The notes: generated by a model not told the origin, from the sequence alone. A stretch of 54,288 nucleotides of DNA from an uncultured Gemmatimonas sp. (GCA_964649225.1 CAZYPO010000002.1:48384-102671); one strand, 5' to 3'. Numbered from the stretch's first letter, positions 8,132-53,541 are shown. Numbers and translations are program-made.

Positions 8132-8154
8132 CGGGCAAAGATAAGCGATCGCGC

Positions 8155-9441: not shown

Positions 9442-10679
9442 GTTATCGAGAGTCCCAGCACGTCCATCACATCGCCCACTGTGTGGAACGATCCGGTTAC
9501 CAGCACCGTCTGCGCTCTATCCTGCACCCGCCGCAACGCCTCGGTGAAATCCGGGATCAGCTGCCAGGCCGCACGGGCCGGGGGACGCTGCGGATCTTTG
9601 AGCCAGTGGCGCAGCCACTCGAGGTCCCAGCGCCGCCCGGCCGCGCTCGGGGCGACCGTCAGGATACCGCGGTCCACGACTTGGTCGAGCCGGACCAGCA
9701 TCTCGGGCCAGGCCTTTTCGCCCAGAATCGAGACCAGCGCGTGAATCGGCCGCGGCGGAGCCAGCTCCTCTATGCTGCGACAGAGCGCCGCGATCCCATC
9801 GGGATTGTGCGCCACATCAAACAGCCACTTGCCATGGCGGTCCAGCCGCCCCGGGACCGTGACGCTCCCGAATCCTTCGCGAATGGCCTCGGGCACCGGA
9901 CGATAGGGCGCAGGCAATGCTTCCAGGACCGCCTCGGCCACCGCCGCATTCCTGCGCTGGTGCCGACCCGCCAGCGCGAGCGGACCGTGGTACTCTGCCT
10001 CGGCTGGCACCACCCGCACATCGGCCTCGGCGCCTGGCTCGATCGTTCGGACCGCGGCGCCCGCCTCGGCGCGCAGCACGGCGATGAGCTCCGGTCTCGT
10101 TTCGCCCACGATGAACGGGGCGCCCGGCTTCGCGATCCCGGCCTTCTCACGGGCGATGGCCGCGAGCGTATCACCCAGGTATTTCTGATGGTCCATCTCG
10201 ATCTTGGTGACCGCGCTGGCCAGCGGACGCACCACATTCGTGCTGTCGAGCCGACCGCCGAGCCCGACCTCGATAACCGCGACCTCCGCGCCGCGCGCCG
10301 CCAGGTCGGCGAACGCCACCGCCGTCGTCGTTTCAAAGAATGTAGCGCCCAGCCGGTCTGCAAGCGGGAGTAAGCGCTCCACCCACATCGCCGCTGCCTC
10401 CTCGCCGATCGGCCGGCCCTCCACCATGATTCGCTCCCGGAAGGAAACCAGGTGGGGCGAGGTGTAGGTCCCTACCCGCCAGCCGGCGGACCGCAACGCC
10501 GCCGCGATCAACGCGGTGACGCTGCCTTTCCCGTTGGTCCCTCCCACGTGCACCACCGGCATCACCGTGTGTGGGTCGCCCAGCTCGGCCAGCAGCGCGC
10601 GAGTCGTGTCCAGCCCGAACTTGATCTGGGTGACGCGGGCGTAGAGGTACTCGAGGGCGCCGGCGTAGCTGAGAGACAT
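9438..10679 (-). CDS. folC: folylpolyglutamate synthase / dihydrofolate synthase
   Basis: HVGGTNGKGS, YTSPHL..FRERI, TFFETTT, IEVGLGGRLDSTNV, EKAGI, DVAHNPDG. Confidence 0.94.
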   Translation of the reverse strand: MSLSYAGALEYLYARVTQIKFGLDTTRALLAELGDPHTVMPVVHVGGTNGKGSVTALIAAALRSAGWRVGTYTSPHLVSFRERIMVEGRPIGEEAAAMWVERLLPLADRLGATFFETTTAVAFADLAARGAEVAVIEVGLGGRLDSTNVVRPLASAVTKIEMDHQKYLGDTLAAIAREKAGIAKPGAPFIVGETRPELIAVLRAEAGAAVRTIEPGAEADVRVVPAEAEYHGPLALAGRHQRRNAAVAEAVLEALPAPYRPVPEAIREGFGSVTVPGRLDRHGKWLFDVAHNPDGIAALCRSIEELAPPRPIHALVSILGEKAWPEMLVRLDQVVDRGILTVAPSAAGRRWDLEWLRHWLKDPQRPPARAAWQLIPDFTEALRRVQDRAQTVLVTGSFHTVGDVMDVLGLSIT

Positions 10680-10692
10680 GAAGAGACTACGG

Positions 10693-10736
10693 CTGTTGGC
10701 GGTCAGCCGTTAGCCGTTAGCTGTAGTTGTGAGTAG

Positions 10737-10740
<4 letters not shown>
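10693..10740. repeat. degenerate heptamer array (CCGTTAG-like, about 7 units)
   Basis: CTGTTGG CGGTCAG CCGTTAG CCGTTAG CTGTAG TTGTGAG TAGTTAG between accD and folC. The last unit contains the accD TAA. Confidence 0.7.
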
Positions 10741-11606
<866 letters not shown>

Positions 11607-11720
11607 CACGGCCATAGGCTTGAGGTGAAGGACACGAAAGAGGCGTCACCGATCGGGCGCAACCGGCTCAATCTGGCGTAATCGCCAGCATCTCGCCAGA
11701 CCTTGACGCCTAAGTCGTTG

Positions 11721-12962
11721 TCATACATCGGCATAGCCACTCAGCCTCGAGTCCAAGGCCACCCGCAAAGCCAGCCCCATGGCCAGCCCAGTCGCCAGAA
11801 TAAAGGAGCCTCCATATGAAAAAAATGGCAGTGGGATTCCGGTGATGGGCATGATGTTGATCGTCATGCCAACGTTCTCGAACAAGTGGGTAAACAGGAG
11901 TCCCAATACCCCGAAAACCACCAGACTGGAAAACGGGTCGGTCGCCCGGCGCGCAATCCGGAGCAGAATCATGAACAGCCCCAGGAAGAGACTCAGCGCC
12001 GTGATCACGCCAAGGAATCCGAGCTCCTCCCCCACCACGGCAAAGATGAAATCGGTGTATTGCTCCGGCAGGAACGCCAGCCGTTTCTGCGGGCCGTTCA
12101 GGAACCCGTTGCCGAACAGCCCTCCTGAGCCGATCGCAACCTTCGACTGGATCGCCTGGTACCCGGCGTGGACGGGATCGCTTTCCGGATTGAGATAGGT
12201 CAGCAGGCGTTGCCGCTGGTAGTCCTTGAGCCCGTTCCAGATCACGATGGCCACGACGCCCATGGCCGAGTTCACCAGGTAAATCAGTACGCCTTCGACG
12301 ACGTAGGAACGCCAGAGCACCAGCAGCAGGAAGAGCACGAGCATCCAGGCGCCCCACCAGCGGGTGTCCGCGGCCAGCAGCAGGCTCACTGCCGGGGAGG
12401 CGAGCAGCAGGAGCAGGCGCGGCGACACGCCCGCCCAGAACAGCATGGCGAAGAGGATCCCGATGAAGACGATCGCGCTGCCCAGGTCCGGCTGTCCCAT
12501 CACCAGGATGAGCGGGACCCCGGCAATCATGACCGGGACCACCAGCCTGCGGAGCGTGTGGGGCGGTTCGCGCAGTGAGGAGAGGTAGCGCGCCAGCAGC
12601 AGGATCGTTGCCAGCTTGGCCAGCTCGACCGGTTGTCCGATCTTGTGGCCCGAAATCGCCAGCCAGCTCTTGCTGCCCGCCGCCGTTCCGGAGCCGGTCC
12701 CCACCAGCAGGGTCAGCACCAGCAGCAGGAGCCCAACCGCGTAGAGAAACGGCGCGGCCCACTCGAGCAACCGGAAATTCACCCGGAGGACCACTGCGGC
12801 CGCGACCGTCGCCACCCCGATCCATGCGATCTGGCGGGTCCAGGCGTTACGGGCCAGGCTGGGTACATCGGTCTGCCCGGCGGAATAGACCATCAGCACG
12901 CCGAAGGCGGAGAGCGCCAGCACGGCCAGAAGGAGCGGCCGGTCGAGACCTTGCCGTCTCAT
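11721..12962 (-). CDS. rodA: rod shape-determining SEDS protein RodA
   Basis: QPVELAK, QPDLGSA, YQRQRL, QSKVAIGSGG, LPEQYTDFIFAVVGEELG, PFFSYGGS; lies directly after the PBP2 gene. Confidence 0.94.
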   Translation of the reverse strand: MRRQGLDRPLLLAVLALSAFGVLMVYSAGQTDVPSLARNAWTRQIAWIGVATVAAAVVLRVNFRLLEWAAPFLYAVGLLLLVLTLLVGTGSGTAAGSKSWLAISGHKIGQPVELAKLATILLLARYLSSLREPPHTLRRLVVPVMIAGVPLILVMGQPDLGSAIVFIGILFAMLFWAGVSPRLLLLLASPAVSLLLAADTRWWGAWMLVLFLLLVLWRSYVVEGVLIYLVNSAMGVVAIVIWNGLKDYQRQRLLTYLNPESDPVHAGYQAIQSKVAIGSGGLFGNGFLNGPQKRLAFLPEQYTDFIFAVVGEELGFLGVITALSLFLGLFMILLRIARRATDPFSSLVVFGVLGLLFTHLFENVGMTINIMPITGIPLPFFSYGGSFILATGLAMGLALRVALDSRLSGYADV

Positions 12963-14794
12963 CGCGGGATGGTGTCGGGGATCACGCTCGGCTGAGCCAC
13001 CGAATCCTCCACCACCGGCACCTTCACCTTGGCACGGCCCAGGCTCGGATCGAGCTCGGCCAGATACCGTCGGATGACCTGCACCACATAGGGCGCCACG
13101 CCGGAGCCGTGCTCCTTGAACTCCATGATGCTGCCCACCACGATCTCGGGCTTGTCGGCCGGGGCGTACCCGATGAACCAGCCATGGTCCTTGCCATGCG
13201 CGTTCTGCGCGGTTCCGGTCTTCCCCGCCACGTGGATCTCGCGTCCGCCGCTCGCGGACGCCGTACCGCTCTCGACCACTTTCGCCAGCGCCACGCGCAA
13301 CCCCTGCAGCTGCGCGGGAGTGAGCCCGAGCGAGCGCCCCGCGGTTTGGGGGCGCTGCACCAGGTAGGGCGACCGGATGCTGCCGTCGCCCGCGAGCGCG
13401 GCGTAGAACCGCATCATGTTCATCAAGGACTGGTTGTTCTCACCTTGCCCGATCGCGAGGTTGAGCGTCACCGCGTTGCTCCAGCCCCTCGGGCCATAGG
13501 CGCGGTCGTAGTAGGCGGGATTGGCGGGGAGGAATGGCTTCACCTCGCTGCCGAGATCGATCCCGGTCCGCTCCGAGAAGCCCAGCTTGTTGCCATCCTC
13601 GAGAAGGTACGGTAGGCCCAGCCGGAGGCCGAGCTGGTAGAAATAGGCGTCGCAGCTCTTCGCGATCGCGTCGGTCAGGTTGAGCGAGCCGTGGCCTTCC
13701 TTTTTCCAGCAGTGGAAAAAGCGGTTGCCGTACTGAAAGCCCCCGCGGCAGGGCTCCGGCATGTGGGTCTCGAAGCCCACCGCTCCGCGGCGCAGCGCCA
13801 TCACGGCCAGCGCCAGTTTGAACGGCGAGGCGGGGGGATAGGTCCCGCGGATCGCGCGGTTCAGCAGCGGCTTGGCTTCGTTGCTCGTCAGCCCCGACCA
13901 CAGCTCCTGCCCGATCCCGCCGATGAACTCATTGGGGTCGAAGCTCGGCGCGGAATACAGCGCCAGGATCTGCCCGTCCGGTGTCATCGCCACGAGGGCG
14001 CCCCGGGTGTCGGGCAACGCGGCCTTCCAGAGGCTGTCGATGAACTCCTGCAGAGGGAGGTCGATGGTGGTCTTGATCGGCACGCCGGCGATCGGTGAGA
14101 GCGAGGGCGAGGAGACTTCCTCGCGCACCATGCGGCCGCGCGCATCCACTTCGGTGTAGCGCACTCCGTCGATCCCCCGCAGCACCGAGTCGTACTGCTG
14201 TTCCAGCCCATCCCGGCCCACGATCGAGCCCATCCGCGAGCCCGGATAGCGCCCTTTTTTGAGCTCGTCTTCGTTCACCTCGCCTACGTACCCCACCAGG
14301 TGCGCCACCGCCGCCCCGGCGCCGTAGATCCGCCGCGGCTCGGTCTGAATCACCAGGCCCGGCAGCAGGTAGCGGTGCTCCTCGAGCTGGGAGACGGTTT
14401 CGAAGCGCGCCCCGGTAAAGACCAGCGTCGGCTGGTAGGGCGCGCTCTGGAAGCGCCGCACGATCGTCCGCGCTTCCGCGCTGTCGAGCGGCACCAGGGT
14501 TGCCAGCCGCCCCAGCACCGCCCGGATGGAATCCGCCGAAGGCGAGAACAGCTTGACCGTATAGCCGGGAACGTTCTCCGCGATGACCGCGTTGTGGCGG
14601 TCGAGGATCGCGCCGCGGGGCGCCAGCAGCGGAACCTGGCGAAGCCGGTTCTTCTCCGACCGCAGCCGGTAGTCCTGCACCTCGAGCACCTGGGCCCGGA
14701 AGAAGGCGCCCGTCAGCAGCAGGAACACGATCCCCAAGACCAGTTTCGCCTGCGACGTGCGCGCGCGCAGCCGCTCCGCACTGAGCCCGTTCAT
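12959..14794 (-). CDS. mrdA: penicillin-binding protein 2
   Basis: APRGAILDR, GRDGLEQQYD, transpeptidase motifs SPFK / SCD / KTG. ATG 14794 overlaps the mreD stop. Confidence 0.93.
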   Translation of the reverse strand: MNGLSAERLRARTSQAKLVLGIVFLLLTGAFFRAQVLEVQDYRLRSEKNRLRQVPLLAPRGAILDRHNAVIAENVPGYTVKLFSPSADSIRAVLGRLATLVPLDSAEARTIVRRFQSAPYQPTLVFTGARFETVSQLEEHRYLLPGLVIQTEPRRIYGAGAAVAHLVGYVGEVNEDELKKGRYPGSRMGSIVGRDGLEQQYDSVLRGIDGVRYTEVDARGRMVREEVSSPSLSPIAGVPIKTTIDLPLQEFIDSLWKAALPDTRGALVAMTPDGQILALYSAPSFDPNEFIGGIGQELWSGLTSNEAKPLLNRAIRGTYPPASPFKLALAVMALRRGAVGFETHMPEPCRGGFQYGNRFFHCWKKEGHGSLNLTDAIAKSCDAYFYQLGLRLGLPYLLEDGNKLGFSERTGIDLGSEVKPFLPANPAYYDRAYGPRGWSNAVTLNLAIGQGENNQSLMNMMRFYAALAGDGSIRSPYLVQRPQTAGRSLGLTPAQLQGLRVALAKVVESGTASASGGREIHVAGKTGTAQNAHGKDHGWFIGYAPADKPEIVVGSIMEFKEHGSGVAPYVVQVIRRYLAELDPSLGRAKVKVPVVEDSVAQPSVIPDTIPR

Positions 14795-15285
14795 GCGTCG
14801 ATCCGGATGGCAAACCAGTTGCGGAAGAGCAGCAGGATCACCGTGCCCGCCACCGCCGTCGTCAGGGCCTGCAGCGGCGCCCACACCAGCAATCCCGCCG
14901 AGAGCTGCCCCGCCGGGGTCCCGCTCGCCAGCAGCATCAGCGTATTGCGGAGCATGACACCGCCGGCAAAGAGGCCGGCATTCACCAGCAGGTTATCGGG
15001 GAAAAAGACCGCCCTGCCCCACGCCGCGAGGTAACCCACCACGGTATGGGCCAGGGCCCCCGCGCCGAAGCTCGCCGGGGTCAGCACGTCATTGACCAGG
15101 CCGACGATGAAACCCGCCAGCGCCGCGATGCCCGGCCGGGCGCGAATCGCCACCAGCATGAGGGCGAGCAGCAAAAAGTCCGGCGCCGCGCGGCTGTCCC
15201 ACAGTCTGGGCCGGACATAGAAATGCAGCGCCGCGAGCAGCGCGAAGCCGAGCATCAGCTGACCTGAATCGCGCCGCGGGCTCAC
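14791..15285 (-). CDS. mreD: rod shape-determining protein MreD
   Basis: Hydrophobic 164-aa protein (PDFLLL, GFIVGLVNDVL) between mreC and mrdA with 4-bp overlaps. Confidence 0.88.
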   Translation of the reverse strand: MSPRRDSGQLMLGFALLAALHFYVRPRLWDSRAAPDFLLLALMLVAIRARPGIAALAGFIVGLVNDVLTPASFGAGALAHTVVGYLAAWGRAVFFPDNLLVNAGLFAGGVMLRNTLMLLASGTPAGQLSAGLLVWAPLQALTTAVAGTVILLLFRNWFAIRIDA

Positions 15286-16103
15286 GGGGGCGAATCAGGC
15301 GCGGAGGGAACCCGCAGCACCAGCACGTGCGCCAGATGGCCCGGATTGGCGAGCGGCGCCAGCCGGTAGATCCGTTCCCAGCCGAGCTCTTCTTTGCGCA
15401 CCCCCGCCACCCGCCCGATCGGGATCCCGCGCGGATACACGCCACCGAGCCCAGAAGTCAGCACCAGCGTCCCGGTCGAGACCGTATCGCGGTAGGCCAC
15501 CCCGCGAAACTCCAGGAACGTCTCACTCGCCTCGGTGTTCACCGAGGGCGCTACGATGCCCAGCACCGCGCCGTCCTCGGTTGCCGCGCTCACCCGAAAG
15601 TCCGGGTGCGCCCAGGTCATCGCCACCGTGCTCATCCCGCCCACGCTGATCAGCACGCCCACGAGACCTTCGGGTGAGATCACCGGATCGCTCACCCTTA
15701 TGCCGGCCGCCGCGCCGACCCCGAGTAGCAGGGTGCGGCCATCCGTCGGTGCCGTCTGGTGCAGGACCTCGGCGGGGACGGTGGCGACCGCGGTCCGGCC
15801 GCGCAGCGCCAGCAGGGCGCGCAGCCGCTGGTTCTCCGCGGCGAGCTCGGCGAGGGATTGGGAGGCAAACACGGCGGAATCCCGCTCCGCCTGCAGCGCT
15901 TGGAAGCGGGAGCGGCTCGTGCGGCCTTCCACCGCGCGCTGCTCCAGCCACAGCAAGGGCAGCAGGGCGGTCTCGCGCACCCCGTTCGCCAGCGAGAGGC
16001 TCCAGCGCTCGGGCAGGGCGATGGCGCCAACCGAAAGCGCCAGACAACCGAGGAAGAGGAGGGTGTCGCTCCGTGAGGTAGCGCGGCCCGTCGCTCGGTT
16101 CAT
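15282..16103 (-). CDS. mreC: rod shape-determining protein MreC
   Basis: N-terminal TM helix, coiled coil (ELAAENQRLRALL), TSGLGGVYPRGIPIG. Confidence 0.9.
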   Translation of the reverse strand: MNRATGRATSRSDTLLFLGCLALSVGAIALPERWSLSLANGVRETALLPLLWLEQRAVEGRTSRSRFQALQAERDSAVFASQSLAELAAENQRLRALLALRGRTAVATVPAEVLHQTAPTDGRTLLLGVGAAAGIRVSDPVISPEGLVGVLISVGGMSTVAMTWAHPDFRVSAATEDGAVLGIVAPSVNTEASETFLEFRGVAYRDTVSTGTLVLTSGLGGVYPRGIPIGRVAGVRKEELGWERIYRLAPLANPGHLAHVLVLRVPSAPDSPP

Positions 16104-16104
16104 G

Positions 16105-17139
16105 TCAGGAGGTGAGGACGCTCCGATACTTCTCGAAATCGTCCAGGATGCGGCCGGTGCCGCGCACGACGCAGGTGAGCGGATCCTCATCCAGATGGAT
16201 CGGTAGCCCGGTCTCCTGCTGCAGCAACAGGTCGAGCCCGCGGATCAGCGCGCCTCCGCCGGTCATGATGATGCCGCGATCCACAATATCCGCCGACAGC
16301 TCGGGCGGAGTGATCTCCAGCGCGCGCCGGACCGCATCCACGATCTGCTGCACCGGCTCCTGGATGGCCTCGCGAATCTCGCTGGAGTGCACCCGCACCG
16401 TCTTGGGAATGCCCGACACGAGATCGCGGCCTTTGACTTCCATCTCCCGCTCTTCTCCTGTGGGGTACGCGGAGCCGATCTTGATCTTGATCGCTTCGGC
16501 GGTGGGCTCACCGATCAGCAGGTTGTAGTTCTTGCGCATGAACTGCACGATCGCCTGGTCGAGTTCATCGCCGCCGGTGCGGATGGAGGTGTCGCTCACG
16601 ATCCCGGAGAGCGCGATCACCGCGATCTCCGTGGTCCCCCCGCCGATGTCGATCACCATGTTGCCCGTCGGGGTCTCGACCGGCAACCCGACGCCGATCG
16701 CCGCCGCCATCGGCTCCGCGACCATCAGCACCTGCTTGGCACCCGCGGTTTCCGCGGAATCGCGCACCGCTCGGCGCTCCACTTCGGTAATTCCCGAGGG
16801 AACGCACACGATCACCCGCGGCTTCACCCGAAATATGTGCTTGTCGATTATGGTCTTGAGGAAATAGCGCAGCATCTTCTCGGTCACGTCGAAGTCGGCG
16901 ATCACGCCGTCTTTGAGCGGCCGCACTGCGATGATGCCGTCGGGCGTGCGCCCGAGCATCCGTTTCGCCTCGAGCCCGACCCCTTTGATCTTTCCGGTGG
17001 CGCGTTCCAGCGCCACAACCGAAGGCTCGTTGAGCACGATGCCTTCGCCGCGCACATAAATCAGGGTATTGGCCGTTCCGAGATCCACCGCGATCTCGTT
17101 GGCGGGAAGCCAGTTTGCGAATTTCCAGGAACGAAACAT
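16105..17139 (-). CDS. mreB: actin-like protein MreB
   Basis: VDLGTANT, LNEPSVVA, RPLKDGVIADF, DIGGGTTE, TGGGALIRG. Alternative GTG start at 17145. Confidence 0.97.
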   Translation of the reverse strand: MFRSWKFANWLPANEIAVDLGTANTLIYVRGEGIVLNEPSVVALERATGKIKGVGLEAKRMLGRTPDGIIAVRPLKDGVIADFDVTEKMLRYFLKTIIDKHIFRVKPRVIVCVPSGITEVERRAVRDSAETAGAKQVLMVAEPMAAAIGVGLPVETPTGNMVIDIGGGTTEIAVIALSGIVSDTSIRTGGDELDQAIVQFMRKNYNLLIGEPTAEAIKIKIGSAYPTGEEREMEVKGRDLVSGIPKTVRVHSSEIREAIQEPVQQIVDAVRRALEITPPELSADIVDRGIIMTGGGALIRGLDLLLQQETGLPIHLDEDPLTCVVRGTGRILDDFEKYRSVLTS

Positions 17140-24166: not shown

Positions 24167-26760
24167 ACCCCCTTCGCTGGCTCGCCCGCCTGCTTCCACC
24201 GGGAGAGCGCGAATTCGTCCTCGGCGACCTGGAGGAAGTCTACGGCAACGCCTCCACCCTGCGGCGCGCCGCGGAACTCCTCAAGGCCGCGGCCGCGCTG
24301 CGCCGAACCCGACCCCTGGCCTCTCGTCACGGAGACCGCTTCATGCACACCCTGCTCAACGACTTCCGCTACGGCCTCCGCCAGCTGCTGCGCAGTCCCA
24401 GCTTTACCGCCCTGGCGGTGCTCACGCTGGCGCTCGGTATCGGGGCGACGACCGCCGTGTTCTCGGTGATCAATCCGGTTCTGCTGCGTCCGCTGCCCTA
24501 CCCCCACCCGGAGCGGATCGTGACGCTGTGGGAACGCGGCGAGGACGGCGGGGAGAGCAATACGGGCTATGCCACCTTCCTCGACGTGCGACAGCTCGCG
24601 ACCGCGTTCGACGGCATCGCGGTGCTGAGCTCGTGGCAACCGACCCTGCAAGGCGGCGCCGAAGCGGAACGACTCGATGGCCAGCGGGTGACCCGGGAAT
24701 TCTTCGCGGTCCTCGGGGTGCGCCCCGCGTTGGGACGCGACTTCGCTGCCGCGGAGCATGTGCGCGGGCAACACCACGTCGTGATTCTTTCCCACGGCCT
24801 GTGGCAGCGCCGCTTCGGGGGTGATCCGTCCCTGATCGGGCGCCCGGTCACCCTGAACGGCATCGCGTACACCGTGGTCGGGGTGATGCCCAAGAGCTTT
24901 GAGAGCCTGCTCGCTCCCACGGCGCAGCTGTGGGCCCCACTCGCCTACGAGACCTCCCTGCCCTGGGCGTGTCGCAGTTGCCGGCATCTCCGTATGGTCG
25001 GCCGCCTCAAGGGTGGCGCAGATGCGGCACGCGCCGGCAGGGAGCTGGACCTGATCTCGGCCCGCATGGTCGCGGAACATCCGACGGACTACCCGGCGAA
25101 GGGCATGTTCGTGGTTCCGCTCCAGACCCGGCTCACCCGCGACGTCCAGCCGGCGCTCCTGGCCGTGCTGGGCGCGGTGGGCTTCGTGCTGCTCATCGCC
25201 TGCGCCAACGTATCGAGCCTGCTGCTGGGCCGCGCGATGCAGCGCGAAAGCGAGTTCGCGATCCGGGGCGCTCTGGGAGCCGGGCGGCAGCGGGTCGTCC
25301 GGCAGCTGCTGACCGAAAGCGTCCTGCTCGGGCTGCTGGGAGGTCTGGGTGGAGTCGTGCTGGCCTGGTGGGGCGTGAAAGGCCTCGTGGCACTCGGACC
25401 CGCCAGCCTGCCGAGGTTGCAGGCGATCGGCATCGACCTCGGAGTATTGGGATTCACCGCGGCCCTCTCGGTGGCTTCGGGACTCCTCTTCGGCCTGATT
25501 CCCGCCTTCGCGACGGCGCGTCCCGATCTGTTTACCGCGCTGCGTCCCGGCGGCCGCCATACGGGACAGAAGCGCCGCCGGATGGCACGCGCGATCCTGG
25601 TGATGGGGGAGGTTGCCCTGGCACTCATGCTCCTCGTCGGTGCGGGCCTGCTGATGCGAAGCCTGCACCGCCTGTTGGACGTGGATCCTGGGTTCGAGCC
25701 GAAGCGCTTGCTCACGATGGAGGTGCAGACCACCGGCCCTCGCTACGAGGATGAGGACGCGGTTCGCGCCTTCTTCGTCCGCGCGGCGGACGCGATCCGC
25801 GCGATACCCGGCGTCGAGCAGGCCGGGTGGACGAGCCAGCTGCCTCTGGGCGGAAACTTCGACCGCTATGGGGTGGAGATCGCAGGCAAGCCCCTGCCCA
25901 ATCCCGCCAACGCGCCGTCGGCGGACCGTTACGCGGTCTCGCCGGGCTATCTCGAGGCAATGCGGATTCCCCTCAAGCGCGGACGGACGATCACCGCGGA
26001 CGACGCGCGGGGCCGGCCCGGGATCGTGCTCATCAACGAAGCCTTCGCGAAGCAGGACTGGCCGGGCGGTGACGCCCTCGGCGCGCGGATCCAGCTGGGC
26101 GGACCCGGCGCCCCGTGGCGGACGGTGGTCGGCATCGTGGGCGACGTGCGCCACGTCAGCCTCGACGAGCGGCAAGCGCCCCAGGTCTACCTCCCCGAGG
26201 CGCAATGGCTCGGCGCCGACGGTGCGATGGTGCTCACGGCGCGCACCAGGGGCGAGCCCGCCGGGATGGCGGCCGCGGTGCGCGAGGCCATCCGCTCGGT
26301 CGATCGCGAACTGCCGATCCTGCACCTGGCCACGATGGAGGCAGTCGTCGCGAATACGGCCGACCAGCGGCGGTTTGCCTTCGTGCTGTTCGAGGGGTTT
26401 GCCCTGGTGGCGCTCCTCCTCGCCGCCGCCGGTATCTACGGTGTGCTGGCGGGCAATGTCACCGCCCGCACCCGCGAGATCGGCATCCGCTCCGCGCTGG
26501 GCGCCTCGCGCGGCGGGCTGCTCAAGCTGGTGATCCGGCAGGGGCTGGCGCTGACGGTCGCGGGGATGACGGCGGGACTCGTGGGGGCCCTGCTGTTGAC
26601 GCGATTCCTGCGCGGCCTGCTCTTCGGAGTCGGGGCGCAGGACCCGCTGACCTTCCTCGGGGTGGTTGCTGTGCTGGCGGTGGTCGCGCTGGCGGCCTGC
26701 CTTGCCCCCGCGCTGCGGGCGACGCGGGTTAGCCCGCTCGAGGCGCTGCGGTCGGAGTGA
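24163..26760 (+). CDS. duplicated MacB/FtsX-type ABC permease without ATPase (ADOP-like)
   Basis: DFRYGLRQLLRSPSFT, LALGIGATT, LLIACANV, RESEFAIRGALGAGR, GIYGVL...RTREIGIRSALGA, C-terminal RATRVSPLEALRSE. Confidence 0.9.
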   Translation: MNPLRWLARLLPPGEREFVLGDLEEVYGNASTLRRAAELLKAAAALRRTRPLASRHGDRFMHTLLNDFRYGLRQLLRSPSFTALAVLTLALGIGATTAVFSVINPVLLRPLPYPHPERIVTLWERGEDGGESNTGYATFLDVRQLATAFDGIAVLSSWQPTLQGGAEAERLDGQRVTREFFAVLGVRPALGRDFAAAEHVRGQHHVVILSHGLWQRRFGGDPSLIGRPVTLNGIAYTVVGVMPKSFESLLAPTAQLWAPLAYETSLPWACRSCRHLRMVGRLKGGADAARAGRELDLISARMVAEHPTDYPAKGMFVVPLQTRLTRDVQPALLAVLGAVGFVLLIACANVSSLLLGRAMQRESEFAIRGALGAGRQRVVRQLLTESVLLGLLGGLGGVVLAWWGVKGLVALGPASLPRLQAIGIDLGVLGFTAALSVASGLLFGLIPAFATARPDLFTALRPGGRHTGQKRRRMARAILVMGEVALALMLLVGAGLLMRSLHRLLDVDPGFEPKRLLTMEVQTTGPRYEDEDAVRAFFVRAADAIRAIPGVEQAGWTSQLPLGGNFDRYGVEIAGKPLPNPANAPSADRYAVSPGYLEAMRIPLKRGRTITADDARGRPGIVLINEAFAKQDWPGGDALGARIQLGGPGAPWRTVVGIVGDVRHVSLDERQAPQVYLPEAQWLGADGAMVLTARTRGEPAGMAAAVREAIRSVDRELPILHLATMEAVVANTADQRRFAFVLFEGFALVALLLAAAGIYGVLAGNVTARTREIGIRSALGASRGGLLKLVIRQGLALTVAGMTAGLVGALLLTRFLRGLLFGVGAQDPLTFLGVVAVLAVVALAACLAPALRATRVSPLEALRSE

Positions 26761-26787
26761 GCGTTCCCAATGCACTTCTGACCTGGC

Positions 26788-26828
26788 GACGGTGAGAACG
26801 GCCTCCATCCTCACCGTCCCCACCGTCC
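26788..26828. repeat. CTCACCGTC nonamer hairpin plus tandem copy between convergent genes
   Basis: GACGGTGAG(26788-96)...CTCACCGTC(26810-18) followed by CCCACCGTCC. It could act as a bidirectional terminator. Confidence 0.7.
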
Positions 26829-26831
26829 GCC

Positions 26832-28202
26832 CTACATCAACCCCAGCCCCCTGCGAATATCGTTCGAGAACGCGAGCACCATCAGCAGCGCGATCAGGAT
26901 CAGTCCCACGAAGGTGAGCCGCTCGCGCAACTTGGGCGAAAGCGGGCGCCGCAGCACCGCCTCGCCGATCAGGAAGAGGAATTGCCCGCCGTCGAGCACC
27001 GGGATCGGGAGCATGTTCAGCACGGCGAGGTTCACCGAGATCGTTGCCATGAACGCCAGGAACGCCGTGATGCCGAGCTGTGCGGACTGCCCGGCGGCGA
27101 TTCCGATGGCGATCGGGCCGCCGATCCCCCGAGTGGAAACCCTTCCGCTGAACATCCCGCGCACCAGACGGACGATCTGGGTGGACACCGCCAGGGTCTG
27201 CCGACCGCCGGTGATCGCGGCCTGGCCCAGCGTGAGCGGCCGGTGGTTTGTGGGCACCGCGGGCCCCAGGCGCAGTTTGCCTACTTTGTGGATCCCGGTG
27301 CTGTCCTTCACCATCTCGGTCAGGGTGTGGGCGACCAGCTCTTTCCGGCCCTCCGGCCGCCCGACCCGGAGCGTCAGGTCCTGATCGGGCCTCGACTCGA
27401 CCAGGGGAATCACGTCAAGCCATTGCCTGACCGGCTGTCCCGCCACGCTGATCAGCGTATCGCCCGAGCGCACCCCTGCGCGCGCCGCGGGGCCGCCCGG
27501 AACCACCTCGCCCATGATCGGGGTGATGAACGGCTGCAGCGCCTGCACGGCCGCCAACCGGGCTTCCAGGGCGTCACGATGCAGCCGGACGGTGAGATCC
27601 GGCCTGCCCTCGACCTCGAGGCGGAACGAATCCGCCGAGGTGGAGAGGAAGGTTTCCTGGATGTCGTCCCAGGAGGCCACCGGCCGCCCGGAGATCCGGA
27701 CGATGCGATCCCCCGGTGAGAGCCTGGCCAGCTCCTCCGCGCCCGCCGGCAGCGTCGGCGCCACAGCGCCGACCCGGGTGATCGGCACGACCGTTCGTCC
27801 GTTGACGAAATTGAGCCCGGAAAAGACCAGCCACGCGAAGAGCGTGTTCATCGTGACGCCGGCCAGGATCACGATGATCCGGACCCACACCGGCTTCGCT
27901 TCAAAGACGCGATCGGCTGGGACGCTCGCGCTGGCCGGGCCGCCCTCCAGCGTCGAGGAAGCGGGATCCTCCTCCCGGCTCGCCATTTTCACGTAGCCCC
28001 CGATCGGGAGCCAGGAGACCGCGTACTCGGTTTCCCCCCGCCGCCAGGTCAGCGCCCGCACCGGCTTGCCCATGCCGAGCGAAAAGCGGTGCACGTAAAT
28101 GCCCGCGGCCTTGGCCGCGAGGAAGTGCCCCAGCTCGTGCACGAAGATGAGCACACCGAGCACCACGATCAGGGCGAGGATGTTCAGCAAGACACCGCTC
28201 AC
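26832..28202 (-). CDS. rseP: RIP metalloprotease RseP
   Basis: HELGH, LPIGGYVKM, LAGVTMN, two PDZ-like regions, NMLPIPVLDGG. Confidence 0.94.
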   Translation of the reverse strand: MSGVLLNILALIVVLGVLIFVHELGHFLAAKAAGIYVHRFSLGMGKPVRALTWRRGETEYAVSWLPIGGYVKMASREEDPASSTLEGGPASASVPADRVFEAKPVWVRIIVILAGVTMNTLFAWLVFSGLNFVNGRTVVPITRVGAVAPTLPAGAEELARLSPGDRIVRISGRPVASWDDIQETFLSTSADSFRLEVEGRPDLTVRLHRDALEARLAAVQALQPFITPIMGEVVPGGPAARAGVRSGDTLISVAGQPVRQWLDVIPLVESRPDQDLTLRVGRPEGRKELVAHTLTEMVKDSTGIHKVGKLRLGPAVPTNHRPLTLGQAAITGGRQTLAVSTQIVRLVRGMFSGRVSTRGIGGPIAIGIAAGQSAQLGITAFLAFMATISVNLAVLNMLPIPVLDGGQFLFLIGEAVLRRPLSPKLRERLTFVGLILIALLMVLAFSNDIRRGLGLM

Positions 28203-43833: not shown

Positions 43834-44922
43834 TCATGGCGCGAGGAGCCGCCGGACCCGGGCAGTCACCTCCCCGGGCGAAAACGGCTTGAGCACATAG
43901 TCCGTGGCCCCGAGGGAAAACGCCTTCACAAGGTCCGCTTCGGCGCCGAGGGCCGTCAGCATGACGATGGGGATCTTGGCCCAACCCGCCATCGCCCGCA
44001 GCCGGGTCAGTACGGAGAAGCCGTCCAGGCCGGGGAGCTTTACGTCCAGGATCACGAGACTCGGAGGGCCCGCGGCGGCAACCTGAAGCGCCTCGAGTCC
44101 GTCCGATACCGCGTGCACGCGAAAGCCGTCGCGCTCGAGCCGATGGCGCAAGACCTCGACCGTGAGATCGTCATCTTCGACGAGCAGAACATCCGCCGGC
44201 CCTTCGACACCCGCCTCGCTGCCCGCCGGGCCCCGGGGCGATGAGCCGCTTCGCGGCGAGTCCGCCCGCGCGCCGACCGCCCGAGCGAGCCGGGCGGTGA
44301 CGGCCGCGCCGATTGCGGCTGCGTTGAGGGGCTTCTGAAAGAATCCGTCGGCGCCAAGGGCATAACACTCTGCTTCGGTCTCCGGTCCCAGGGATGGCGA
44401 GATCGCCAACAGCGGCACCTGCGCCGTATGGCTCATGCGGCGCAATCGGCTGAGGAGCTTTCGCCCATCCTCGTCCGGCAGGACCAGATCGACCAGGATC
44501 AGGTCCACCGCCTGCTCGGCAAGCAGCTCGGTGGCCTCACGGGAGCTCTCGGCTACGAGGATGCGGCGGCCGGGAGCGCCAAGCGTTCCGGTGAGGAGAG
44601 AGCCGACCTGCGGATCATTGCCCACGAGCAGAATGGTTCGAAGCGGGATCGGCCCGGTGGCGGCACAACGGACGGCGATCTCGAACAATTGCTCGGCCAC
44701 GCTGAGATCAAATTCGGATTCCCCAATGGGGCGAGCAGCTTCGGTGATCTCCGGGAATCCGAACGCCGCTCCCGTTCCTTTCAGATCGTGGGCGAGGCGG
44801 CGAATCGCGTCCCAACCCCGATCGGATCCCGAGGCGGCAAGATCGATCGCGGCCCGGAGCGCATCGGCATGGACGGGGAGACGCGTCCGATAGATCTCGC
44901 GGAGCGAGGCCGGGTCGGTCAT
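43834..44922 (-). CDS. Hpt-REC-REC phosphorelay protein with no output domain
   Basis: Hpt motif LAHDLKGTGAAFGF; REC1 DLILVDLVLPDEDG...QKP; REC2 VEDD...LVILDVKLPGLDG...MLTA...LKPF. Confidence 0.85.
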   Translation of the reverse strand: MTDPASLREIYRTRLPVHADALRAAIDLAASGSDRGWDAIRRLAHDLKGTGAAFGFPEITEAARPIGESEFDLSVAEQLFEIAVRCAATGPIPLRTILLVGNDPQVGSLLTGTLGAPGRRILVAESSREATELLAEQAVDLILVDLVLPDEDGRKLLSRLRRMSHTAQVPLLAISPSLGPETEAECYALGADGFFQKPLNAAAIGAAVTARLARAVGARADSPRSGSSPRGPAGSEAGVEGPADVLLVEDDDLTVEVLRHRLERDGFRVHAVSDGLEALQVAAAGPPSLVILDVKLPGLDGFSVLTRLRAMAGWAKIPIVMLTALGAEADLVKAFSLGATDYVLKPFSPGEVTARVRRLLAP

Positions 44923-49184: not shown

Positions 49185-51362
49185 ATGAGCTCCATGACCT
49201 CTCAGGCCCCCGGACAAGAACCGCCCCCAGACTTCTGGCTCGCGCAGACCTTGCTCGATGCGGGGATTGTGCTGGGGGTGCAGGCCGAAGAGCTGCGCGA
49301 GATCGAGCACGAGGACGAGGAGGGGGGCACCGTCTGGGAGCGGGCCGTCACGCGTGGGTACGCCAGCGACGAGCGCATCGTGCAGGCGCTCGCCGCTCAG
49401 TTCAAAATCCCGCCAGCGGATCTCGCCACGGCCGACCTCCGCGCTGCCACGCTGCTCCCCGAAGTGGTGGCTCGCAAGCATCGCGTCGTGCCAGTCGCCG
49501 CCGATGATCGTACCATCACGCTGGCCACCGCCGACCCCCGCGACCTCGATCTCGAGGGCACGCTTCGCTTCGTGACCGGGCGCCGCATCGTCCTGCAAGT
49601 CGCGCCGCCCGCCGACATCGATAAGAAGATCGATGAGGCCTATCGCCCCGAGCGGACCATCAACCAGCTGCTCAGCGGCCTGAACCCCGCCACGCTCGAA
49701 TCGATCGAAGAGGTCCAGACCGGGGGCGCCGAGCGCGACCCCGCCCTCGACGCCCCGATGACCCGGCTGGTGGATGCGATGATCACCGATGGCGTCCGGG
49801 AGGGTGCCAGCGACATCCACGCGGAACCCCGCTCCGATGGCACCTCGGTGCGCTACCGGATCGATGGCGTGCTCAAGGAAGTGATGCGGCTGCCTTCCAA
49901 TGCCGGGCCTTCGCTGGTGCGCCGCGTGAAGATCCTGGCCAAGCTCGACGTGACCGATCCGTTGCACCCCCACGACGGCCGTGCCGGCGTACGCGTGGAT
50001 GGCAAGGTGATCGACCTCCGGATCGCCACGGTGCCGGTCGCCCGGCGCGGCGAGAAGGTCGTGATCCGAATTCTCGACAAAGCCAATCTGCGCGCGAATG
50101 TCCCCGACCTGCACCTGACCAAAAACGAGGAGCAGCTCTTCCAAAAATTCCTGGGCAACCGGGAGGGCATGGTGCTGGTGACCGGCCCCACCGGGAGCGG
50201 CAAGACCACCACCTTGTACGCGGCGATGAACGAGCTGAAGACCGGCAAGGTGAACATCGTCACGGTCGAGGACCCGGTCGAGTACGACATGCCGGGTATC
50301 TCCCAGCTCCAGGTCAACGAGGCGCAGGGCTTCACCTTTGCGACAGCGCTGCGCTCCGTGCTGCGCCAGGACCCCGACATCCTGCTGGTCGGTGAAATCC
50401 GCGACGCCGAGACTGCGGACATCGCGATCCAGGCCGCGCTCACCGGGCACCTGGTGTTGTCCACCCTGCACACCAACGATGCGCCCTCCGCCGTGGTCCG
50501 CATGCGGGACCTGGGGACCGATGGGTTCAAGCTCGCGGCGGTGCTCAAGGGGATCGTCGCCCAGCGGCTGGTACGCCGGGTCTGCGCGGCGTGTGCGGTG
50601 CCCATTCCGGTCGCCGAGCTGCCCAAGGAAGCCCGCCCGCCGAAGCGCCGCAAGGCCAAGCCCATGCGCGCGGTCGGCTGCAAGACCTGCAGCGGAACCG
50701 GGTACCGGGGACGCCTCGCGGTGCTGGAGATCATGCCAATCAACGACGCGGTCGCCCACCTGATCGAAGCCGGCGCGCTCACCGATGTGCTGAGCGCCGC
50801 CGCGCGGCCCCTCGGCATGCGCACGCTGTGGGAGAGCGCCTTGGAACGGGTCTGGCTCGGCCAGACCGATCTGGCTGAAGCGGTCCGCGTGCTGGGCGAC
50901 CGCTCGGAGGACGAGGCGGCCGCCGTGCCCGCGGCGGAGGCGGTTCCCGCCTCGATCCGCGCGGCGGTGAGCGCCTCCCATACCGGCAAGCCCCGGGTTC
51001 TGGTGGCCGACGACGACCAGCAGATGCGCCGCCTGGTGCGCTCCATCCTCGAGCGGGATGGGTACGAAGTCACCGAGGCGGCGGACGGCCTCGACGCGCT
51101 CGAGCAAGTGGAGAACAAGCCCTTCGACCTGTTGCTGCTCGACATCGACATGCCGAGGCTCGACGGGCTCGGCGTGCTGGAAGAGCTCCGGACCCGCATC
51201 AAGACGCTGGGCGTCCCGGTGATCGTGCTGACCGCGCGCACCGATGACACCGAGACGCGGGTGCTCGATCTCGGCGCGCAGGACTTCCTGACCAAGCCGG
51301 TGCAACCCAAGTCCCTGCAGGCGAGGGTCAAGGCCGTGCTGCGGCGCGCCAAGCTGGCCTGA
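49185..51362 (+). CDS. PilB/GspE-family ATPase fused to a C-terminal receiver domain
   Basis: T2SSE_N-type N-terminus, SDIH.EP, Walker A GPTGSGKTTT, TVEDPVEY, LRQDPDILLVGEIRD, GHLVLSTLHTN, tetracysteine CAAC...CKTC and GYRGR. It ends in a REC domain (VADDD...LLLLDIDMP...LTA...TKP). Confidence 0.92.
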   Translation: MSSMTSQAPGQEPPPDFWLAQTLLDAGIVLGVQAEELREIEHEDEEGGTVWERAVTRGYASDERIVQALAAQFKIPPADLATADLRAATLLPEVVARKHRVVPVAADDRTITLATADPRDLDLEGTLRFVTGRRIVLQVAPPADIDKKIDEAYRPERTINQLLSGLNPATLESIEEVQTGGAERDPALDAPMTRLVDAMITDGVREGASDIHAEPRSDGTSVRYRIDGVLKEVMRLPSNAGPSLVRRVKILAKLDVTDPLHPHDGRAGVRVDGKVIDLRIATVPVARRGEKVVIRILDKANLRANVPDLHLTKNEEQLFQKFLGNREGMVLVTGPTGSGKTTTLYAAMNELKTGKVNIVTVEDPVEYDMPGISQLQVNEAQGFTFATALRSVLRQDPDILLVGEIRDAETADIAIQAALTGHLVLSTLHTNDAPSAVVRMRDLGTDGFKLAAVLKGIVAQRLVRRVCAACAVPIPVAELPKEARPPKRRKAKPMRAVGCKTCSGTGYRGRLAVLEIMPINDAVAHLIEAGALTDVLSAAARPLGMRTLWESALERVWLGQTDLAEAVRVLGDRSEDEAAAVPAAEAVPASIRAAVSASHTGKPRVLVADDDQQMRRLVRSILERDGYEVTEAADGLDALEQVENKPFDLLLLDIDMPRLDGLGVLEELRTRIKTLGVPVIVLTARTDDTETRVLDLGAQDFLTKPVQPKSLQARVKAVLRRAKLA

Positions 51363-51367
51363 GCGCC

Positions 51368-51757
51368 ATGGCCAGGATTCTGATCGTGGAGGACAATCCG
51401 GACAACATGAAGTTGTTCCGGGCATTGCTGACGCTGCGGGGCCACGAGGTGACGGCGCTGCCGTCCGGCGAGGGCCTCTTCGAAACGCTGGCCCAAACGC
51501 GGCCGGAGCTGGTGTTGATGGACATCCAGCTGCCGGGCAAGGATGGCTTCGCGCTGCTGTCGGACATTCGCGCCTCCGACTGGGGACGCCTGCGCGTGGT
51601 GGCGTTGAGCGCGCACGCCATGTCGGGTGACGCCGAGCGGGCGCGCCAAGCGGGGTTCGACGATTACATCACCAAACCGATCGAGATCGGGGAGTTCCCA
51701 GGGCAGGTCGAGCGGGCCCTGGCCGGACAGCGGATCAACTCGGAGGAGTCTCCTTGA
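51368..51757 (+). CDS. single-domain response regulator (DivK-like)
   Basis: ILIVEDNPDN, LVLMDIQLPGKDG, LSAHAMSGD, YITKPI. Confidence 0.92.
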   Translation: MARILIVEDNPDNMKLFRALLTLRGHEVTALPSGEGLFETLAQTRPELVLMDIQLPGKDGFALLSDIRASDWGRLRVVALSAHAMSGDAERARQAGFDDYITKPIEIGEFPGQVERALAGQRINSEESP

Positions 51758-52257
51758 GCCCACCGCAGAGACAGCCTCCCTTTCGCGACAGCAAGAGCAG
51801 CCTCTATGAGGCGGCGCTCGAGGTCGTGAAATCCAGCGAGCAGGCAGCGACCCAGTTGGTATCCAAGCCGCCCGCCCGACGGCGCGGCTGGCTCATGGTC
51901 TTGCTCCTCCTCGCGCTGGTCGGCGCACTGCTCCTGCTGCTGCGCCCGGTCTGGCTGGCGGGTCCCCAGGCCCCGCCCCCGGAGTCGCCGGGCATCGCCG
52001 CTGCATCGCTCCGGCTCGAATTGCTACGCGAGCGGCAGCGGGTGTTCACCTTCACCCGGCAGCACGGACACTTGCCCGCCACCTTGACTGAAACCGGTAG
52101 TCTCGGTGCCGACATCCAGTACCAAGCGACCGGCCCCGACGGGTTCCTGTTGTCCGGCCGGGTCGGAGACTCGCTCATCACCCTGCGCTCCACCGATCCG
52201 CTTCCGACCTTCCTGGGTGAGAGCCTCCGGCGCTTCAAGAATCGAGGTACCCAATGA
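51754..52257 (+). CDS. single-TM pilin-like / non-canonical minor pilin
   Basis: Basic RRRG then a hydrophobic helix (WLMVLLLLALVGALLLLL); later RVFTFTRQHGHLPATL resembles a pseudopilin alpha-beta loop. It has 4-bp overlaps on both sides. Confidence 0.5.
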   Translation: MSPPQRQPPFRDSKSSLYEAALEVVKSSEQAATQLVSKPPARRRGWLMVLLLLALVGALLLLLRPVWLAGPQAPPPESPGIAAASLRLELLRERQRVFTFTRQHGHLPATLTETGSLGADIQYQATGPDGFLLSGRVGDSLITLRSTDPLPTFLGESLRRFKNRGTQ

Positions 52258-52715
52258 AGCACCGGCGACGTGGGTTCACCCTGATCGAGCTGATGGTCGT
52301 AGTCATCGTGCTCGGCCTGCTCGCGGGGATCGGGTTGCTCAGGTACATCGACATGCGCAACGCGGCCATCGCTACCCAGATGTCGCAAGAGCTACGCGCG
52401 GTGACCGTGGCGTCGCTCAACTACTACGCGGACCTGGAGCAGTGGCCCCCCGACGCCGGCGCGGGCGCGGTACCCGCCGGCCTGGGCCCCTTGCTCCCCG
52501 GACAACTGGCCACCTCGTTCGACCGGGGACAGTACGTGCTCGATTACGAGGTGATCGGGGACGCCACTTCGGGGTACATCATCGGCGTCTCTGTCAGTAC
52601 CACCGATACCAAGCTATTCGCCAAGTTCGTCCAATATCTCGGAACCAAGGCGCCCTTCTCGGTCTCGGGCAACACGATGACCTATCTGATTGCGGGGCCC
52701 GGCGGAGTCTTCTAG
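52254..52715 (+). CDS. type IV pilin / pseudopilin
   Basis: Class III signal MKHRRRG|FTLIELMVVVIVLGLLA with E5, and a YYADLEQWP motif. Confidence 0.9.
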   Translation: MKHRRRGFTLIELMVVVIVLGLLAGIGLLRYIDMRNAAIATQMSQELRAVTVASLNYYADLEQWPPDAGAGAVPAGLGPLLPGQLATSFDRGQYVLDYEVIGDATSGYIIGVSVSTTDTKLFAKFVQYLGTKAPFSVSGNTMTYLIAGPGGVF

Positions 52716-52725
52716 GCCGACTGCG

Positions 52726-53541
52726 TTATTCGATGCTTCCCCGCAGGGCCAGGACGGCGGGGTCCGCGGGAGGGTAGCGCGGGTCCATCAGCTCAAGCGT
52801 CCTCACCAGCACCTCCGCCACCAGAAAATCCCTCGGCTTGTTCTTGTCCGCCGGCACCACGTACCAGGGAGCGTAGTCGGTGCTGCAGCGCTCCAGGACC
52901 TCTTCGTAGGCCGCCGAGTACTCCTCCCATTTCTTGCGCTCGTCCAGATCGGCGGCCTGGAATTTCCAGTTCTTGGCCGGATTGCTCAGGCGCTCTTCCA
53001 GCCGCTCCCGCTGTTCTTCCTTCGAGATATGGAGAAAGAACTTTCGGATCACGACGCCTTCGTCGGAGAGCATCGCTTCGAAGGCGTTGATATGCTCGAA
53101 GCGCCTGCGCCAGATCGCCTCGGCGGCCAGGCCGTGCACCCTGACCGCGATGATATCCTCGTAGTGCGAGCGGTTGAAGAGCCCGATGCTGCCCCGCGGC
53201 GGCACCGCCTTGTGCACCCGCCAGAGGTAGTCGTGGTTGAGCTCGAGGGCGCTGGGACGCTTGAAGCTGGTCACCCGGCAGAGCGCGGGGTTGAGACCGC
53301 CGAACACTCGCCGGATGGTGCCGTCTTTCCCCGAGGCATCCCTGCCCTGCAGCACCACGAGCAGCGCGCGCTTTGCCTCGGCCCCCAGCGCAGCCTGCAG
53401 CTGCTCGAGGCGCTCGGTGAGGTGGTCGAGCGCGTCGTCGAGCTCGTCCTTTCGGGGCAGGCCGGCGGGCGGCTGGGCCAGCGCGTCGCTGAGCCGGAGC
53501 GGGGAGCCGGTCGGATGGGGCTGCAGGAACTGGGTGCGCAT
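52726..53541 (-). CDS. ppk2: polyphosphate kinase 2 family (polyP:nucleotide phosphotransferase)
   Basis: LQGRDASGKDG (Walker A), FNRSHYED, FFLHISKEEQRERL, WKF..ADL.ER, APWYVVPAD. Confidence 0.92.
   Translation of the reverse strand: MRTQFLQPHPTGSPLRLSDALAQPPAGLPRKDELDDALDHLTERLEQLQAALGAEAKRALLVVLQGRDASGKDGTIRRVFGGLNPALCRVTSFKRPSALELNHDYLWRVHKAVPPRGSIGLFNRSHYEDIIAVRVHGLAAEAIWRRRFEHINAFEAMLSDEGVVIRKFFLHISKEEQRERLEERLSNPAKNWKFQAADLDERKKWEEYSAAYEEVLERCSTDYAPWYVVPADKNKPRDFLVAEVLVRTLELMDPRYPPADPAVLALRGSIE

Follow-up and report, generated by a model that had tools for sequence, protein, structure and literature searches.

A candidate phospho-switched PilB/GspE-class motor ATPase with a C-terminal receiver domain in Gemmatimonadales

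We analyzed a stretch of 54,288 nucleotides from an uncultured Gemmatimonas sp. (GCA_964649225.1, CAZYPO010000002.1:48384-102671; here called the window), which corresponds to the final 54 kb of contig C2 in a Gemmatimonadales assembly of 3.3 Mb. It encodes P0001, an ATPase of the PilB/GspE class that carries a receiver (REC) domain at its C-terminus and is followed by three small genes with which it forms a tightly packed module. All observations taken together are best explained, with a probability of roughly 0.6, by a PilB/GspE-class motor that is switched by phosphorylation and belongs to a plug-in module operating on a shared type IVa pilus machine. The features of P0001 to which we refer below, including the positions corresponding to the motifs for binding of cyclic diguanylate (c-di-GMP), are the following:

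49185..51362, + strand: P0001, PilB/GspE-class ATPase with C-terminal receiver, 725 amino acids (aa) (Pfam, motifs, structure model)
49236..49364, + strand: the two degenerate c-di-GMP motif positions of P0001, residues 18-41 and 49-72 (alignment, motif scan)
50994..51359, + strand: receiver domain of P0001 (Pfam, residue conservation, structure comparison)

The open reading frame of P0001 is uninterrupted, and its GC content at third codon positions (0.89) matches that of the genuine genes of the window; in the database copy of the protein, translation begins with the second ATG (49194), which gives 722 aa. Pfam matches were obtained to T2SSE (residues 189-568, E 3e-121, 404.8 bits versus a cut-off of 24.9), Response_reg (PF00072; residues 605-716, E 1e-31, 109.4 bits), and MshEN (residues 74-158, E 1e-18, 67 bits). 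From the N-terminus, the protein is built of a four-helix region resembling MshEN_N (~18-73), the MshEN/N1E domain (74-158), a disordered linker (160-186), N2D plus the ATPase core (189-568), a second disordered linker (574-600), and the receiver (604-724). The preliminary description of this DNA had stated that all PilB/GspE motifs are present, and each of them could in fact be read in the sequence: Walker A (GPTGSGKT, residues 334-341), the Asp box (VEDPVEY, residues 361-367), Walker B (DPDILLVGEIRD, residues 396-407), the His box (TGHLVLSTLHTND, residues 420-432), and a tetracysteine motif formed by C467, C470, C499, and C502. All five were invariant in 48 of 48 orthologues with 62-91% identity. 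The Pfam score and the four catalytic motifs place P0001 in the T2SSE ATPase superfamily (PF00437), and the N1E/MshEN domain together with the tetracysteine zinc motif assigns it to the PilB/GspE subclass rather than to PilT, whose family matches are limited to residues 197-466. The best-matching solved sequences were the type IVa pilus PilB proteins of Geobacter and Myxococcus, Thermus PilF, and Vibrio GspE, and in a Foldseek comparison the core of an AlphaFold2 model of P0001 fell on PilB and GspE structures, with template modelling scores (TM-scores) of ~0.8 for PilB. According to our prediction, P0001 forms hexamers, is intact in its catalytic parts, and acts as an assembly ATPase of the PilB/GspE class. 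The possibility that it represents a decaying pseudogene or paralogue is ruled out by the intact frame and by the invariance of the catalytic and receiver residues in the 48 orthologues.

The C-terminal receiver had been described as having its DD pocket, phospho-acceptor Asp, Thr, and Lys intact, and both Pfam and residue conservation agree with this. It possesses all the elements of a PF00072 domain, namely an acidic pocket (D609/D610/D611), an Asp at the phospho-acceptor position (D653, in LLLLD), T683, the aromatic switch residue F701, and K704. In none of the 48 orthologues do D609 to D611, D653, T683, and K704 vary; F701 was read from the sequence. The domain is most like the receivers of the OmpR/PhoB family and of PleD, including the α4-β5-α5 stretch LDLGAQDFLTKPVQPKSLQARVKAVLRR, and the closest solved receivers are those of PhoP, PleD, and PhoB. 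Receivers of the OmpR/PhoB family and of PleD pair via the α4-β5-α5 face once they are phosphorylated, and it is because of this OmpR/PhoB-like face that we consider a pairing of receivers in the mechanism proposed below. The invariant active site, the likeness to OmpR/PhoB and PleD receivers, and the position of a sister paralogue behind a hybrid kinase with an Hpt domain (see below) lend indirect support to the view that it serves as a working phospho-acceptor controlling the motor. Gating of the P0001 ATPase in cis by phosphorylation, as originally proposed, is plausible.

A survey of the ATPase-receiver architecture across taxa, which had been suggested together with that proposal, uncovered a large family. 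When 1.84 billion representatives at 50% identity were searched and the best 150 clusters were scored with our own domain hidden Markov models, a C-terminal receiver was found in 115 of these 150 clusters and an N-terminal receiver in a single representative. More than 100 clusters at 90% identity have the same three domains as P0001, and their names come only from automatic pipelines. The acceptor Asp is present in 105 of 117 REC-fused representatives, as is the Lys (105/117), and the linker preceding the receiver varies from ~15 to more than 250 residues. In a FastTree phylogeny of the ATPase core, computed from a sample biased towards the query, the REC-fused proteins cluster together (125 rows, support 90) and stand apart from canonical PilB as well as from a clade formed by tandem ATPase-ATPase proteins. 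The amino acid composition of the representatives ranges from very high-GC-like to low-GC-like, and a homologue search identified one low-GC clade as Calditrichota, including Caldithrix abyssi. The REC-fused family spans Gemmatimonadota and Calditrichota, and the composition points to additional lineages. The fusion is visible in databases, where both domains are annotated automatically; it is real, well conserved, and not unique to this gene. In the two Calditrichota loci L003 and L004, the REC-fused ATPase is encoded by the first gene of a complete pilus-type cluster that also comprises an A24 peptidase, a T2SSF platform protein, three prepilins, a PilM-like protein, PilO, a secretin, and a PilT-like ATPase. 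Complete clusters headed by a REC-fused ATPase indicate that the subfamily includes genuine machine motors. The PilM-like protein of L003 and L004 is unusually long (650-700 aa), and the gene of the PilT-like ATPase is located at the end of the cluster.

The survey also returned proteins with other domain arrangements. Thirteen proteins of ~1000 aa (P0133, P0135, P0138, P0141, P0142, P0146, P0148, P0149, P0151, P0153, P0155, P0158, and P0225) contain a tandem of two complete PilB-like cores. They constitute a separate clade, and most of them have a lower-GC-like amino acid composition than the query. In P0171, P0197, P0200, P0216, P0218, and P0144, a REC-fused ATPase extends by 400-800 residues past the receiver, and P0144 has three receivers at its C-terminus.

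According to the preliminary description, the N-terminal MshEN-like repeats of P0001 lack the RLG signature. Two N-terminal stretches, WLAQTLLDAGIV at residues 18-29 and VWERAVTRGYA at residues 50-60, align with the two c-di-GMP motifs of the canonical PilB protein of the same genome, and the alignment is in accord with this statement. In motif I, W18 is found in place of Arg and A20 in place of Gly (RLG to WLA), and in motif II, T49 and W51 are found in place of the first and third residues (RLG to TVW), with W51 occupying the Gly position. Sequences were scanned for the tandem 24-residue motif RLGxxLLxxGLLxxxxLxxxLxxQ, or for the relaxed pattern of Wang et al. 2016 (PMC5013675), with the two copies 5 residues apart. 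Neither N-terminal stretch of P0001 fits even the relaxed 24-residue motif, which places the protein outside the MshEN c-di-GMP receptors as defined by motif. The canonical PilB of the same genome has kept the first 12 residues of motif I (RLGDILVKEGLL) and a full motif II (PLGFVVAKQGFV). Among 16 canonical PilB orthologues of the phylum, whose reading frames were chosen by the frame of Walker A, at least one relaxed motif was detected in 14, and both, at a distance of 29 residues, in 11; the 109 REC-fused representatives comprise 94 without a motif, nine with one, and six with both. W18 is conserved in at least 90% of the 48 orthologues of P0001 and W51 in all of them, and a Trp residue occurs at position 1 of motif I in 37 of 77 representatives and at position 3 of motif II in 20 of the 77. 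That these Trp substitutions are recurrent and conserved indicates that the N-terminal domain was remodelled under selection rather than simply decayed. The loss of the c-di-GMP motif in the REC-fused family is real and non-random, and c-di-GMP binding by the N-terminal domain of P0001 is predicted to be lost. Judged by its sequence, P0001 is a member of an old and distinct subfamily in which a receiver is joined C-terminally by a flexible linker and most members are devoid of the c-di-GMP-binding residues. The inverse relation between receiver fusion and c-di-GMP motif suggests an evolutionary replacement of one input by the other.

The P0001 gene is followed by three genes on the same strand:

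51368..51757, + strand: P0002, stand-alone receiver, 129 aa (Pfam, family models)
51754..52257, + strand: P0003, bitopic membrane protein, 167 aa (no Pfam family; start overlaps the P0002 stop by 4 nt)
52254..52715, + strand: P0004, prepilin-type protein, 153 aa (4-nt overlap with P0003)

The P0002 gene starts 5 nt past the P0001 stop codon, so that the four genes are separated by this 5-nt gap and then joined by two 4-nt overlaps. P0002 has an intact active site (E8/D9, D52, S81, and K103), and the family models nearest to it describe hybrid-kinase receivers. P0003 consists of a conserved cytoplasmic helix (RDSKSxLYEAAL), one transmembrane segment, and a periplasmic α/β domain composed of a helix and a three-stranded sheet; its 34 homologues are without exception hypothetical or unnamed, and a BLASTP comparison of P0003 with P0004 revealed no similarity. 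The P0003-type gene, observed in the window and in L011, L012, and L015, is fast-evolving, with 26-39% identity between genera, and two or three copies are present in some genomes. P0004 has the cleavage motif RRRG|FTLIE and an N-terminus like that of GspG and PilA, with scores below the equivalog cut-offs. The same four genes are located between aroA and ppk2 in two related loci, L001 and L002 (62-71% identity), and the module was found in ~12 more genomes, in most of which all four parts were detected; the P0003 gene is sometimes duplicated. A scan for terminators found none. The PPK2 polyphosphate kinase gene (52726-53541, - strand) converges on the P0004 gene with 10 nt between the stop codons, an arrangement kept in L001 and L002.

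No platform protein (PilC/GspF), secretin, or prepilin peptidase is encoded in or beside the module in the window, in L001, or in L002, which shows that the module is not a self-contained cluster. PilC, the secretin, and the A24 peptidase are each encoded once in the genome, away from the module, and several ordinary type IVa pilin genes are also present elsewhere. It has three PilB-class ATPases, namely the canonical PilB, encoded on contig C7 and followed by pilT and pilC, P0001, and a paralogue of 756 aa encoded on contig C19. Two near-closed relatives, G045 and G122, likewise possess the module and three PilB-class ATPases, and in each of them PilC and the secretin are present as single copies, encoded on a different contig from the module. 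Since the module comes without platform, secretin, and peptidase, it most likely uses the single type IVa pilus machine of the cell, and it would be most parsimonious for the fused motors to operate on this one machine. Among the pilin genes of the genome are four nearly identical short type IVa pilin genes (NRKGFTLIELLIVVVIIG...) arranged in two pairs, on C7 (42395, 42893) and on contig C48 (19829, 20497), which may encode alternative major pilins.

The paralogue encoded on C19 (G000 C19:29707-31974) also has a C-terminal receiver, which is attached by a linker of ~100 aa, and Trp at both motif positions. About 2.7 kb upstream of its gene, on the opposite strand, lies a gene for a FHA-GAF-type adenylate cyclase-like protein (25440-26996), and a NUDIX gene follows it. 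The distribution of the ATPase types was determined by a scan of 150 Gemmatimonadota genomes. Orthologues of P0001 (at least 60% identity) were found in ~15 genomes of one family, the C19-type paralogue in almost every genome of the order, and a third REC-bearing type in other genomes; in the other classes of the phylum there was canonical PilB only. The third type, represented by the Gemmatimonadales loci L021, L022, and L024, is encoded directly downstream of a hybrid kinase with the domain order PAS-HisKA-HATPase-REC-REC-Hpt and in the same orientation. This gene context of a paralogue supports a real link to a phosphorelay. In L021 (G039:C2:642000-659000, ~7700-16800), the string of genes also holds two single receivers, a REC-HD-GYP protein, and a GGDEF-REC protein, and c-di-GMP enzymes and phosphorelay meet at the fused motor.

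From the architecture, conservation, family size, gene contexts, and counts of machine parts described above, we infer that D653 is phosphorylated, that this affects the ATPase, and that the machine is shared. In the mechanism which we propose, a phosphorelay, possibly acting via the adjacent stand-alone receiver P0002, would phosphorylate D653. The OmpR/PhoB-like α4-β5-α5 face of the phosphorylated receiver would then pair with a neighbouring receiver or dock onto the ATPase, and this would alter assembly of the hexamer or its conformational cycle, as in activators composed of a receiver and an AAA+ domain. The module, comprising the motor, P0002, P0003 as a possible pilin-like adaptor, and the prepilin P0004, would plug into the single type IVa pilus machine and assemble an alternative fibre or pseudopilus in response to a two-component signal instead of c-di-GMP. 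A more far-reaching version, in which the subfamily swapped c-di-GMP for direct phosphorelay input, inter-protomer pairing of receivers sets the state of the hexamer, and a Gemmatimonadales plug-in takes over the single type IVa machine to extrude a different fibre, is put forward only tentatively.

Several observations weigh against the proposed phospho-switched motor on a shared machine. P0001 scores below the cut-offs of both the PilB equivalog TIGR02538 (497.2 bits; cut-off 675.65) and the GspE equivalog TIGR02533 (495.2 bits; cut-off 630.25), so that it can be assigned to the PilB/GspE class only and its role in a pilus or in secretion is not fixed. The AlphaFold2 monomer model, calculated with the alignment of the 48 orthologues, contains no confident contact between receiver and ATPase and no confident interdomain arrangement. 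Its domains are confident (mean predicted local distance difference test score [pLDDT] of 79, ~90 for the receiver), the linkers 160-186 and 574-600 are disordered with a pLDDT below 50, and the predicted template modelling score is 0.47; disordered linkers and this score suggest a receiver that is tethered, not docked. No gene for a histidine kinase or an Hpt protein is conserved beside the module in the window, L001, and L002. Two genomes, G125 and G107, have extra platforms and secretins, and sharing of one machine is therefore not forced in every genome. Finally, the two top Foldseek matches of the periplasmic part of P0003 are type IV pilins with a probability of 0.98-0.99 and E values of only 0.08-0.13, so that its possibly pilin-like fold is to be taken as a lead only. 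A gene for an Hpt-REC-REC protein (43834-44922, - strand) is located 4 kb upstream of the module. It was considered as the phosphodonor, which is not supported, as the gene is part of a GT2 polysaccharide operon and has no counterpart at the syntenic loci L001 and L002.

The tethered arrangement of the receiver raises the question of whether it gates catalysis at all. It might instead be a localisation or partner-binding module that directs the motor to the pole or to the machine, or it might act as a phosphate sink together with P0002. The long, disordered linker, which varies so widely in length across the family, fits tethering better than rigid allostery, and a second receiver is encoded directly alongside; moreover, the separate receiver proteins PixG and DrdR are reported to act on PilB through binding. 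However, fusion to a motor over more than 100 diverged clusters would be unnecessary for a pure sink, and the OmpR/PhoB-like dimerisation face is conserved. We consider this explanation unlikely. Equally improbable in our view is that the module represents a minimal type II secretion-like or pseudopilus device, in which P0004 would be GspG-like and P0001 GspE-like, working via the single secretin of the cell. It would account for the nearly equal scores of P0001 with the GspE and PilB models (495 versus 497 bits), for the N-terminus of GspG as the top family match of P0004, and for the GspE-GspL complex 4pht as the top fold match of the whole P0001 model, but no gspF, gspL, gspM, gspC, or gspD gene was found nearby, the related Calditrichota clusters encode, as is typical of pili, a PilT-like ATPase for retraction, and the solved sequences closest to P0001 are type IVa pilus PilB proteins. 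Least probable of all is an N-terminal domain that has retained the binding of c-di-GMP or of a different nucleotide, which would give the motor two inputs to integrate: Wang et al. 2016 (PMC5013675) noted that perfect conservation of the motif is possibly not needed for binding, the six of 109 REC-fused representatives with both motifs show that dual input exists within the family, and conserved rather than drifting W18 and W51 indicate selection on the pocket region, but in P0001 both motifs deviate even from the relaxed pattern where Arg and Gly are required, the Trp that takes the place of Gly in motif II should fill the site, as deduced from the published binding mode, and the non-binders of that study (PA4526, VC2424, VC2732, XCC0660, and XCC4088) are likewise PilB/GspE-type ATPases.

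Among known systems, the PilB proteins of Geobacter (5zfr, 5tsg, 6olj) and Myxococcus xanthus (3jc8), which gave the best matches of P0001 to solved sequences (E ~1e-114 to 1e-116), share with it the N1/MshEN domain, N2D, the core, the catalytic motifs, and the tetracysteine motif. P0001 differs from them by the extra C-terminal receiver on a linker of ~30 aa and by not being encoded beside pilT and pilC, and a sequence search of the PDB with P0001 found no chain that spans ATPase plus receiver. Vibrio cholerae MshE (Wang et al. 2016, PMC5013675) has an MshEN domain and a four-helix region that agrees with that of P0001 in length and helical pattern, whereas the motifs of P0001 are devoid of Arg and Gly (WLA, TVW) and separated by a spacer of 7 instead of 5 residues. 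The catalogue of domain architectures in the same paper (Wang et al. 2016, PMC5013675) contains REC-MshEN-T2SSE, GAF-MshEN-T2SSE, and MshEN-T2SSE-cNMPbind, and the form with a C-terminal receiver is absent from its Supplementary Table 4. REC-MshEN-T2SSE proteins such as Gmet_3473 of Geobacter metallireducens (PMC5013675) resemble P0001 in the fusion of a receiver to a PilB/GspE-type ATPase, but their receiver is N-terminal and they occur in β-, γ-, and δ-proteobacteria, whereas that of the P0001 family is C-terminal (residues 605-716 in P0001) and the family occurs in Gemmatimonadota and Calditrichota. A literature search found no experimental study of REC-MshEN-T2SSE proteins. In the NtrC, NtrC1, and DctD proteins, an N-terminal receiver is joined to an AAA+ ring ATPase, and phosphorylation-dependent pairing of the receivers controls assembly of the ring. 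Like P0001, these proteins combine a receiver with a ring-forming ATPase, and they may work in a comparable way; the likeness is one of presumed function only, as they are σ54 activators of an unrelated superfamily (AAA+ versus RecA-like secretion ATPase) and their receiver is N-terminal. Two-component input to an extension motor via a receiver, as proposed here, is also reported for PilG/PilH, PixG/PixH of Synechocystis, and DrdR of Xanthomonas; these are separate proteins, whereas the receiver of P0001 is fused to the motor and a second one is encoded directly downstream. Full-text literature searches found no paper describing or testing a C-terminal fusion of a receiver to such an ATPase.

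The known inputs to extension motors are c-di-GMP or separate adaptor proteins, and it is an open question how a pilus motor is turned on and in what way several PilB paralogues make use of a single machine. The family described here suggests that two-component signalling can act as a direct switch of PilB/GspE-type motors, and a motor with its own receiver is the simplest test system for the effect of such signalling on the hexamer of a secretion ATPase. As the family is large and present in cultured Calditrichota, it is experimentally reachable, and the swap of c-di-GMP motif and receiver, the plug-in module, and the single platform for three PilB-class motors provide an experimental handle on motor regulation.

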